From a virus (Duplodnaviria; Caudoviricetes): a stretch of 64,000 bases of DNA. Positions within the stretch are counted from its first letter, which is position 1, and each line of letters begins with the position of its first letter. Positions 43,623 to 46,078 of this stretch are shown in pieces. The position numbers and the translations under genes were made by a program. The stretch spans positions 22,181-86,180 of IMG/VR virus record IMGVR_UViG_3300016670_000048. One strand, 5' to 3'. The notes below the pieces were generated by a model. That model did no database searches and had not been told where the DNA came from. It saw only the letters and a list, made by a program, of their open reading frames with translations.

Positions 43623-43707
43623 TTTGAAGTATCACGCTTTTCACGGGGCTGCCAGTAATCATTCTCTGACCCGGTATCGACTTCGGGGCTTTCGCCTATA
43701 CTTCAAA
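43623..43707 (-). ncRNA. structured RNA unit C (unknown class)
   Basis: 10-bp closing stem UUUGAAGUAU/AUACUUCAAA enclosing GGC-GAAA-GCC and further hairpins. Confidence 0.55.
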
Positions 43708-43710
43708 ACT

Positions 43711-43787
43711 TGGTGGGTCCATCCAGACTTGAACTGGAAATCAACGAATTATGAGTTCGCTGCATTAACCAATTATGCTACAGACCC
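43711..43787 (-). tRNA. tRNA with CAT anticodon (Ile2 or elongator Met), CCA encoded
   Basis: GGGTCTG/TGGACCC acceptor, CTCATAA loop, GTTCAAG T-loop, ACCA end. G1-C72 and no GGG/CCC anticodon stem, so not an initiator. Confidence 0.93.
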
Positions 43788-43790
43788 TAG

Positions 43791-43900
43791 ATTAGTTCCG
43801 CATGTGCGGGAAAGTCCACGTTCTTCCAAACTCTATAACGTTACGGTTGTAGGACTGACTTGCGCCTTGAAGACATAACCACTGTTTTGAGTAAACTAAT
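43791..43900 (-). ncRNA. structured RNA unit B (unknown class)
   Basis: Closing stem AUUAGUUU/GAACUAAU, GGC-GCAA-GUC hairpin, possible pseudoknot AGUCC/GGACU. Confidence 0.5.
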
Positions 43901-43925
43901 GATCTGTTTCTTATCAGGCGACTTT

Positions 43926-44011
43926 ATCTGGAAAGTCACATTACCACTACCAAATTAGGAGGCCAATATTGGTTTAGGCACAGATGTTCTTTCGGAGCAT
44001 CCCTTCCAGAT
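43926..44011 (-). ncRNA. structured RNA unit A (three-way junction, GAAA tetraloop plus receptor)
   Basis: 10-bp closing stem, C-GAAA-G loop, GCCUAAACC...GGUAGU receptor. Confidence 0.6.
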
Positions 44012-44155
44012 TTAAACCCACTCTTCTTCATTAGTAATTTCGTCACAACCGATATCAAGATATTCAAACATCTCTTGTGCAGAGCTAAACCGAATAAGGT
44101 TTTCACCACGATCAGTTGCATCCATCACTTCTTGAGTTTTGGTATTTGGAATCAT
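44012..44155 (-). CDS. 47-aa peptide resembling the DinJ/RelB antitoxin C-terminus
   Basis: AGGAG RBS; MIPNTKTQEVMDATDRGENLIRFSSAQEMFEYLDIGCDEITNEEEWV; absent from ORF track because of size. Confidence 0.7.
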   Translation of the reverse strand: MIPNTKTQEVMDATDRGENLIRFSSAQEMFEYLDIGCDEITNEEEWV

Positions 44156-44193
44156 TTTATTTCTCCTATGTTCGCATCGTTTTCACATTACCT

Positions 44194-44221
44194 ATTATAC
44201 AGACTTATTTCCGATTGTCAA
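44194..44221 (-). promoter_or_regulatory. consensus sigma70 promoter
   Basis: TTGACA-16-TATAAT. Confidence 0.85.
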
Positions 44222-44326
44222 CTAATATCTTTCATTTTGTTATAAAAGAATATTAACTATCAGAATCTGTAAATGTATGCTCTATACAACATTGTAACAT
44301 TATTACATTCTATTTGCAACTACTTT

Positions 44327-44518: not shown

Positions 44519-44550
44519 CGGAGGATTCCTTTAATTAAGTTCAGAAGACT

Positions 44551-44579
44551 AATGTATCAAATAAATATCTAAAAAGCAA
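44551..44579 (-). promoter_or_regulatory. possible sigma70 promoter
   Basis: TTGCTT-17-TACATT. Confidence 0.45.
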
Positions 44580-44595
44580 GTGTTTGCGAAAATAA

Positions 44596-45576
44596 TTATA
44601 AAATTCTTATTCCTCCCATTTCAGAAAAGATATTCATAACTTGGTCTAAGTAAATAGTGTAGCAAATCTCCGACCAACCTGACTCAGAAGTATCCATTTC
44701 TAATAAACCCCTAGGGATAAGATCTTTACATTTTCTTTCCGCAGCCTTGCACTCTGCAATAGTCCCATACTCGTATATGGCAAACAGCTCATGCCTGTAC
44801 TGGGAATTATAGTTGTGTTGTATAAGTCTGTTTCTAGAGTTTTTAGATATTCCAAATTTAATAGCTACTGGAACCTGTTCATCATACATCAGATTAATAT
44901 ATGATTCTGTTTGCCTATGAAATGCACAAGAACAACCAACTTGACCCCTCTGCAAGTGTCCTTGCTGGCTTTCATATACATCTCCACACCTATCGCAAGT
45001 TATTTGCCAATAAACACACTGACCTCTCTTAGTTGTCCTGTCTATTCGTTTAAACTTGGTTTCGCTTCCAAAAGAACCTGACTCCATAAAAGATTTAATC
45101 ATAATACTTTCTGGTTTAATATTAAACTTTCTAGCAGCAGCCATTCCCTTGATATCTCTACAATTGATACATCCACGCTCTGCACTCCAAAGCATTGATA
45201 ACTCAAGTGACCAAGTATGGTTACACTTTGTACAGGATAAATTACAACGGGAGCTGGAGCCTGTATAGGGTTGGATTATGCCACAAAACCTATGTCCTGC
45301 ATTTTTAGCGGATCTTTGACTTTTAACTATAGCTTGTTGTTCTGTCCAAATAACTTTTCCTGCACAACCACAAAACAATGCACCCTTTAAGTAATTTTGT
45401 TTGTCTGTATAAAATAAAGAATCACCAAATAATTCTGTGTCAAAGGAACAAACATTGCACTTGAATATATAATCTGTTCTTTTATTATTTCTAACTGTAC
45501 CTATGTATCTGTATCTACCTGAATCTTGTAATTTATAGTCTTTCTTTATGTCTTGAATTGATCCACTGTAAATCAT
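44596..45576 (-). CDS. putative homing endonuclease, zinc-ribbon repeat family
   Basis: FKCNVC, CTKC...W, CDRCG repeats; C-terminal AIKFGISKNSRNRL. Confidence 0.72.
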   Translation of the reverse strand: MIYSGSIQDIKKDYKLQDSGRYRYIGTVRNNKRTDYIFKCNVCSFDTELFGDSLFYTDKQNYLKGALFCGCAGKVIWTEQQAIVKSQRSAKNAGHRFCGIIQPYTGSSSRCNLSCTKCNHTWSLELSMLWSAERGCINCRDIKGMAAARKFNIKPESIMIKSFMESGSFGSETKFKRIDRTTKRGQCVYWQITCDRCGDVYESQQGHLQRGQVGCSCAFHRQTESYINLMYDEQVPVAIKFGISKNSRNRLIQHNYNSQYRHELFAIYEYGTIAECKAAERKCKDLIPRGLLEMDTSESGWSEICYTIYLDQVMNIFSEMGGIRIL

Positions 45577-45624
45577 CTTACTCTCTTTCTTGTATTAAAT
45601 ATTATTTATATTGTATTAGATTTA

Positions 45625-46078
45625 CATTTCAACTGAGTTCAGATAGGAACTTCAGATAAAGAAATACCTTACCCAGCCATACAAAGCCAACGCTCTGCCT
45701 AAGACCGAGTAACGTACCTTATCTGATAGCTCTATCTGCCTCTGTCCGTTATTAGCAATTAAATTGCCTTTCAACTTGAGACGAGATTTAGTGAGTGAAT
45801 AAATCACTCTATGGTCTACACGGACAAACGTAGCCACCTTCAGGACAATGACACTAATAACGCATTGTCTCAACACATTGCATATCGCACGACTTTATTA
45901 GAATCGTTAGGGAGGTAGTGTTTTTCAGTTTACCTTGCAGACTGTCCCATCACTCACAGTAGTCCGCTTGTTTAAGAAAGAAGCTGCCATCTCACACAGG
46001 AAGCGTTAGCCACCATGTTAACCGACCTTCAATCCGATCCTTAATCCAATGTGCTTTCGCTTAGAGTTTTAAGGAGTG
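45625..46078 (-). ncRNA. large structured non-coding RNA, unknown class (~450 nt)
   Basis: Two upstream promoters, no credible ORF, more than ten helices with G-U pairs favouring the minus strand. Confidence 0.6.

Follow-up and report, generated by a model that had tools for sequence, protein, structure and literature searches.

The 47-residue protein encoded at 44012-44155 on the minus strand of this phage DNA is very probably homologous to the toxin-suppression segment of DinJ-type antitoxins. Judged from its sequence, we favour, with moderate confidence, a role as a stand-alone antidote, which would bind a host YafQ-family toxin as DinJ does and thereby defeat abortive-infection defence by a toxin–antitoxin (TA) system. 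The window, by which we mean the whole 64,000-nt stretch analysed, comes from an IMG/VR virus record of 86,180 bp with a completeness rating of 98%.

The gene, its expression signals and its conservation

The features of the locus are as follows.

44012-44155, minus strand: 47-aa ORF including its TAA stop, very probably a stand-alone DinJ-type toxin-suppression module (ORF, relatives, profile and BLASTP homology)
44194-44221, minus strand: sigma-70 consensus promoter, with -35 TTGACA at 44221-44216, a 16-nt spacer and -10 TATAAT at 44199-44194 (12/12 match)
44222-44269, minus strand: AT-rich stretch upstream, part of the cassette and a possible UP element (shared with the contig L030; cassette boundary near 44269)
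44156-44193, minus strand: short unstructured 5' leader with AGGAG at 44167-44163 (transcription start probably near 44187)
44051-44152, minus strand: residues 2-35, very probably homologous to DinJ residues 53-86 (alpha3, loop, alpha4), from the alignment and predicted helices
44015-44050, minus strand: residues 36-47, the acidic low-confidence tail GCDEITNEEEWV, past the DinJ C-terminus (relatives' alignment, AF2 pLDDT)
43711-43787, minus strand: tRNA-Met (CAT), context outside the cassette, 224 nt downstream of the ORF

A preliminary description of this DNA had pointed to an ORF at these coordinates behind a consensus promoter and a strong RBS, and all three were borne out. The ORF lies on the minus strand, with the peptide quoted in that description corresponding to residues 3-35, and the AGGAG ends 7 nt 5' of its ATG. 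The TTGACA-N16-TATAAT promoter is the sole perfect site in the window, where 0.07 would be expected by chance (at least one such site occurred in 7 of 100 shuffles of the window), and is present as a single copy in the phage genome. The leader is essentially unfolded (MFE -0.3 kcal/mol, z 0.43), and the same-frame opening 5' of the ATG extends for 9 codons only. In the 224 nt between the ORF and the tRNA-Met there was no predicted terminator and no credible ORF. The 47-aa ORF is already present in protein collections, where it carries no name. Among the sequencing runs listed for the stretch there was no RNA run, and these runs hold small shares only.

Nine protein clusters are 77-89% identical to the 47-aa protein, all of them 44-51 aa long. 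Together with the ORF they make up ten family members, from which the alignment and profile A1 was built. Residues invariant in A1 cluster in positions 3-35 and include F30, L33 and I35, with M or L at position 29. The C-terminal tail is variable; residues 36-47 differ among the relatives, stay acidic, and mostly end in an aromatic or hydrophobic residue.

The closest metagenomic contig differs from the ORF at 3 nucleotides, all three at third codon positions. In the more distant copy on the contig L030, 43 codons align with no indel and no stop, and the 25 differences in 129 nt are distributed 6/7/12 by codon position. The resulting dN/dS of ~0.56 (pS 0.28), from 25 differences, is only moderately below 1. 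One X5 contig with foreign flanks conserves 44011-44169 alone, which is the ORF and its RBS. The pattern of frame and third positions, the conservation of the ORF by itself, and a relative that keeps the RNA region without the ORF together argue for selection on the ORF itself.

Relationship to DinJ-type antitoxins and their partners

In a HMMER search of 1.84 billion representative proteins, the A1 profile gave 11 remote matches with library-wide E-values of 4e-6 to 9e-4, and phage residues 2-35 were the matched part in every one of them. Five of the 11 belong to the RelB/DinJ antitoxins of Pfam (PF04221), and in these the match falls at the extreme C-terminus, within the span of the Pfam model. 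P0015, which has 86 aa, matches PF04221 over residues 5-83 (E 9e-17), and P0011 matches model positions 25-79. By BLASTP, P0032, a named RelB/DinJ antitoxin, aligned ungapped to the phage protein with 19/34 identities (56%, E 2e-12). A search with the composite alignment found ~60 more PF04221 proteins, 27-58% identical to the peptide over ~34 residues, many of which their sources call 'RelB/DinJ family antitoxin' or 'DNA-damage-inducible protein J'.

The composite profile aligned end to end with E. coli DinJ (4Q2U, 4ML0; E ~1e-12) and with V. cholerae DinJ (9LEW), although the E-value comes mostly from the RHH columns of the bacterial rows, so that this match anchors the register and is not proof of the tail match. 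In this register, phage P3-I35 lies on DinJ P54-I86, ungapped and with 8/33 identities. The phage residues M29, F30, L33 and I35 pair with L80, F81, L84 and I86 of DinJ, and the hydrophobic pattern is kept. An HMM of six bacterial tails picked out this ORF alone among the 1,355 open frames of the window, at 63.8 bits compared to 9.3 for the next frame, a score that is inflated because the tails were picked by their match to the phage profile.

As a single sequence, the 47-aa protein had no match in Pfam, NCBIfam, PHROGs or the PDB (for Pfam and NCBIfam even at E 10), and none in a word-index search for longer proteins. The A1 profile had no match in the PDB or in IMG/VR. Against GenBank phages, megablast returned nothing and tblastn only a chance-level match (E 2). 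The missing curated Pfam/NCBIfam score is expected, as the fragment amounts to ~40% of the model and belongs to a sub-branch. Since direct searches with the 47-aa protein fail, the link to DinJ itself is transitive, running via the antitoxin sub-branch.

The AF2 model contains helices at residues 5-15 and 26-32, with a pLDDT of ~90 over residues 1-30. Confidence falls in the tail, where mean pLDDT is 72 over residues 31-40 and 55 over residues 41-47. A Foldseek search with the model against 350,542 PDB chains returned six matches only, all of them DinJ, at a non-significant E of ~3; this is consistent with DinJ homology and is not independent evidence for it. Neighbours in the ESM Atlas scored 0.83-0.84, which is under the counting level, and RelB was annotated on 17% of the members of one cluster, which we regard as a lead only.

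The protein starts at the equivalent of DinJ 52/53, just after the linker, and the RHH head is absent. Compared to PF04221/TIGR02384 antitoxins, it thus has the C-terminal toxin-suppression segment, and has neither the RHH domain, a score above threshold nor, in searches of limited sensitivity, a toxin neighbour. These results agree in most respects with the preliminary description, which had called the peptide an orphan mimic of the DinJ/RelB C-terminus. The DinJ C-terminus given there agrees with the PDB sequence of 4Q2U, and the ungapped alignment is confirmed in the register given above. The comparison with RelB/DinJ profiles that it proposed leads, through A1, to the C-termini of PF04221 antitoxins, and the lack of an RHH DNA-binding domain holds for all ten family members. 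Its word 'mimic' says too little, as the peptide is in all probability not a look-alike but a true homologue, a captured or stripped antitoxin module. The similarity is to a sub-branch of DinJ-like tails, since Pfam RelB gives no match with the single sequence.

Which toxins the bacterial relatives are paired with could be read in two groups of the closest antitoxins with readable neighbours. One group consists of Pseudomonas gingeri and a Pseudomonadaceae MAG, where a PF04221 antitoxin of 86 aa, with the tail APNAKTRAVMEATDRGENL..., has a 90-94-aa YafQ-family protein (PF15738) beside it. The two genes are convergent, tail to tail and ~40 nt apart, and form no operon (L002:2501-3077, L004:1021-1599). 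In this Pseudomonas YafQ-like protein, N, K and V stand at three histidine positions of E. coli YafQ, H50, H63 and H87, which we take to be the catalytic histidines. The second group, consisting of two metagenome contigs, has a canonical dinJ-yafQ operon with the antitoxin tail ...TFEETDRGENLIRHKDADAMFTKLGI. Here yafQ keeps the histidine motifs, and the same frameshift after 'HQDHP' occurs in both assemblies (L031:1604-1872, L032:3105-3380); this may be a truly broken toxin with a kept antitoxin. Because both readable groups pair with PF15738 proteins, the best-supported target family would be YafQ, not RelE in general. Host toxins of the RelE/YafQ type had been put forward earlier as targets, and of this pair the YafQ-family part is supported by the PF15738 neighbours in the two groups and the RelE-wide part is given up for the narrower target.

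Phage background, the cassette and other carriers of the tail

The genome encodes a terminase, a Mu-type portal and a major capsid protein, in keeping with its IMG/VR entry as a virus and with the earlier view of the DNA as that of a phage. Its large terminase shares 52-53% identity with the terminases of the Pseudomonas phages phiPMW, SYP and vB_PsaM_M1; vB_PsaM_M1 is placed in Ounavirinae, and its G+C is similar (~42% in the stretch compared). The nearest terminase relatives are Ounavirinae-type Pseudomonas phages. A search for tyrosine integrases, whose control was positive in 14/14 genomes, found none in the phage genome, which suggests that the phage is probably virulent. When the A1 profile was run against 301 Pseudomonas species genomes, a similar tail was found in one, the source genome of the locus from which the tail was known, and Pseudomonas can thus not be claimed as the host. 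A PADLOC match to PDC-M72B (E 0.021) was dropped, as the family occurred in 0/201 Pseudomonas genomes and in 0 controls.

No toxin adjoins the ORF in any of three contexts, namely this window, L030 and the X5 contig in which the ORF has foreign flanks, and L030 in particular has no toxin-like neighbour. Within the 86-kb phage genome, PF15738, PF05016 and A5, an alignment of the Pseudomonas YafQ-like toxin, gave no match even at E 10, where the PF15738 search is not very sensitive, as its cut-off was reached in no control genome, E. coli included. The statement in the preliminary description that no cognate toxin is nearby thus holds for the adjoining genes and, by these searches, for the genome.

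The gene and its promoter are found together elsewhere. Positions 44269-44015 of the window align with L030:1607-1841, and the sequences are unrelated past both ends. L030 is a contig from a distant phage. The polymerase-like protein next to its copy of the cassette has only 28% identity with the counterpart here, and the promoter of that copy is the same except for 2 spacer bases. In one close relative, an X5 contig, 89 other bases stand in place of 44017-44281. Promoter, leader and ORF form a unit, as they are present or absent between the same flanks and occur at different sites, and they behave as a movable accessory (moron-like) cassette, having their own promoter, presence and absence between relatives, and different genomic contexts.

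Several further observations were made around the cassette. The X5 contig without it retains 43638-44016, which is the ORF-free stretch with the tRNA-Met, so that this RNA region and the tRNA are independent of the ORF. The region 44156-44269 differs from L030:1607-1721 by 2 substitutions and 1 indel in 117 nt, compared to 25/129 for the ORF; so nearly identical a promoter module points either to unusually strong constraint or to separate histories of promoter and ORF with recombination at the ATG. Two genes upstream, at 44596-45576 on the minus strand, lies the gene for a 326-aa protein that carries the CapR homology domain PF21817 (E 2.5e-14) and has a match to phrog_681 'endonuclease' (E 2.4e-42), which is probably a homing-type endonuclease by these matches. 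In related contigs, ~44536-45631 is swapped for 759-1116 other bases.

The same tail also occurs on other proteins. P0019, an 83-aa protein on a 91-kb viral contig (L006:4001-4252), has a coiled-coil-like head followed by a DinJ tail, and has the relatives P0029 and P0012. In the ORF list, P0019 has no RHH head and no toxin-like neighbour, and it is surrounded by replication-type genes. In the P0010 family, which comprises proteins of 250-350 aa on 47-49-kb viral contigs, the DinJ-tail motif is present in 4 of the 15 aligned members (L007, L008, L009 and L011), where it takes up a hypervariable slot flanked by two conserved blocks. The tail was also found on a protein with an AAA_28/dNK-like domain and on several Nitrospirae proteins with domains of no known function. 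The dNK-like protein with the tail, P0085, gave no match in IMG/VR. Its occurrence on such varied proteins without an RHH head supports the tail functioning independently of the head. It is a real, if tentative, possibility that phages have captured the toxin-binding tail of DinJ from bacterial antitoxins as a portable antidote module and use it without the DNA-binding head. The module would stand alone here, in a cassette with its own promoter that is passed between distant phages, and would be joined in other cases to coiled-coil heads or inserted in the hypervariable slot of a larger phage protein.

The protein at L007:4001-4741 and its relatives L008-L029 share the conserved frame RIISQPQAEEVE ... 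KTDQIDGPIKWRD, and the insert is unrelated in the other members. The C-terminal part of the L007-type protein matches phrog_10201, whose function is not known. From this arrangement, L007-type proteins look like carriers of swappable modules.

Proposed function, alternatives and known systems

[quoted passage not shown] For the phage peptide we infer expression, binding, the identity of the target and a benefit to the phage along the following lines. It would be the toxin-suppression domain freed from a DinJ-type antitoxin, with a helix, a loop, a second helix and an added acidic tail, the cut falling exactly where the linker to the RHH head would begin. Because the gene has its own consensus sigma-70 promoter, host RNA polymerase would read it early in infection, and because the product has no DNA-binding or dimerisation domain it would not repress itself. 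Infection may free a host ribosome-dependent RNase of the YafQ family from its labile antitoxin. The peptide would then wrap the freed toxin one-to-one, like the DinJ tail, with the second-helix patch M/L-F-x-x-L-x-I buried in the toxin. Translation would be kept running, and the TA system would fail as an abortive-infection defence.

Some points weigh on this proposal. Type II antitoxins are usually highly specific. DinJ works as a dimer that tethers two toxins, and a monomeric tail may for this reason bind more weakly than dimeric DinJ. We also counted against an antidote that both bacterial YafQ partners are odd, one with its histidine substitutions and the other with its frameshift. The single A1 match among the 301 Pseudomonas genomes and the transitive nature of the link to DinJ count against it as well.

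Could the peptide instead be what remains of a phage-borne dinJ-yafQ pair? It is clearly derived from a real antitoxin, and a dN/dS of 0.56 would allow for some relaxation. In this case the phage lineage would have lost both toxin and RHH head, and the tail would be either a decaying relic or an anti-addiction immunity, giving protection not from host defence but from the toxins of competing phages, plasmids and prophages. We consider this unlikely. No toxin adjoins the gene in the three contexts and none was found in the genome, and the perfect promoter, RBS, start codon and length are kept across ten sequence clusters; moreover, the intact promoter-gene cassette travels as a unit, which a decaying relic would not do. 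The anti-addiction version, for its part, shares its molecular mechanism with the antidote proposed here. Nor do we think it any likelier that the tail has been reused for another partner, whether a BECR-fold protein or an unrelated one from host or phage; candidates would include a multidomain defence toxin of the RelE/ParE superfamily or a phage RNase. Reuse would fit the occurrence of the same tail on many unrelated heads (coiled-coil-like, AAA_28/dNK-like, the Nitrospirae domains and the hypervariable slot), and multidomain BECR-fold toxins with proposed defence roles are described in PMC11980606. However, the readable partners of the close homologues are single-domain YafQ-family proteins only, and no alternative partner was identified.

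Two further explanations carry less weight than these. The tail may copy the part of DinJ that is recognised by Lon and act as a decoy that competes for or inhibits host proteases, so that antitoxins are spared and toxins stay locked. The result would be like that of T7 Gp4.5, though reached in another way. The peptide is small, is predicted to be partly disordered and has a very strong promoter, as a decoy might. This is very improbable all the same, as neither sequence nor structure gives a sign of protease binding, which makes the idea pure inference, and the best-conserved part is the hydrophobic face of the second helix, which is the toxin contact in DinJ, and not the loop alone. Lastly, the ORF is very short, and downstream of it lie 224 ORF-free nt and a tRNA with no terminator predicted in between, which would fit a non-functional chance ORF in the 5' portion of a transcript made up of non-coding RNA and tRNA. 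This explanation is close to refuted by the significant protein-domain homology, by the conservation of frame and length in ten clusters, and by nucleotide differences that favour third codon positions. In addition, one relative keeps the ORF alone in foreign flanks, while another keeps the RNA region without the ORF.

The closest characterised relative is E. coli DinJ of the DinJ-YafQ pair (4Q2U, 4ML0; V. cholerae 9LEW; PF04221), with which the peptide shares the segment DinJ 54-86 and a predicted helix-loop-helix. It is 24% identical to E. coli DinJ, compared to 45-58% for the sub-branch of DinJ-like tails. In contrast to DinJ, it has no RHH head, and is thus expected neither to dimerise, nor to bind DNA, nor to repress its own gene. 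It also has no adjoining toxin, carries an extra acidic tail of 12 residues, and is phage-encoded behind a constitutive-looking consensus promoter.

Among phage proteins, T4 Dmd is a small early protein that directly binds and neutralises a host TA toxin (RnlA/LsoA) by which infection would otherwise be aborted (cited in PMC11257639). The mode of action proposed for the peptide is the same, with the difference that the peptide is, very probably, a true homologue of the binding domain of the host antitoxin itself. Another difference concerns Dmd, which is not known to be homologous to the cognate antitoxins RnlB/LsoB and targets another toxin family. The authors of PMC11257639 regard AdfN as the first case, to their knowledge, of a lytic phage using an orphan antitoxin for counter-defence. 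Both AdfN and the DarG-like proteins of T-even phages and chimalliviruses are stand-alone phage homologues of a host antitoxin that serve as counter-defence (PMC11825919/PMC11257639, PMC13309987). These are type IV antitoxin enzymes that reverse DNA ADP-ribosylation, whereas the peptide would be a non-enzymatic, type II toxin-binding tail. Like the members of this anti-TA counter-defence class (Dmd, AdfN and DarG-like), it is phage-encoded and, by the genome searches above, has no cognate toxin. Gerdes argues for defence roles of RelE/ParE-superfamily toxins and, by a term search of the article, names no phage-encoded inhibitor (PMC11980606). Full-text literature searches found no report of a phage gene that consists of the RelB/DinJ toxin-binding tail alone.

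Phage antidotes to TA defences are already known, namely Dmd, pseudo-ToxI, AdfA/AdfN and DarG-like proteins, and the natural role of classical type II TA pairs of the YafQ family is still debated. If the tail is indeed a portable module, YafQ-family pairs would restrict phages often enough to select dedicated inhibitors. Neutralisation of YafQ-type toxins by the peptide, if it occurs, would give indirect natural evidence that classical TA pairs act against phages, and the peptide would then provide a minimal toxin inhibitor of 35-47 residues for studies of specificity. In that case the signature PNxKT...TDRGE...F.S...LF..L.I, occurring without an RHH head, could also serve in a search of phage genomes for anti-TA genes, and could help to predict which host TA systems matter for host range.

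A variation on the tail was seen in P0017, a 117-aa PF04221 antitoxin from an NCBI source that has two toxin-binding tails in tandem. The first of these is like the phage peptide, and the second is like E. coli DinJ (…SEAGIDV…LYQKLGI).
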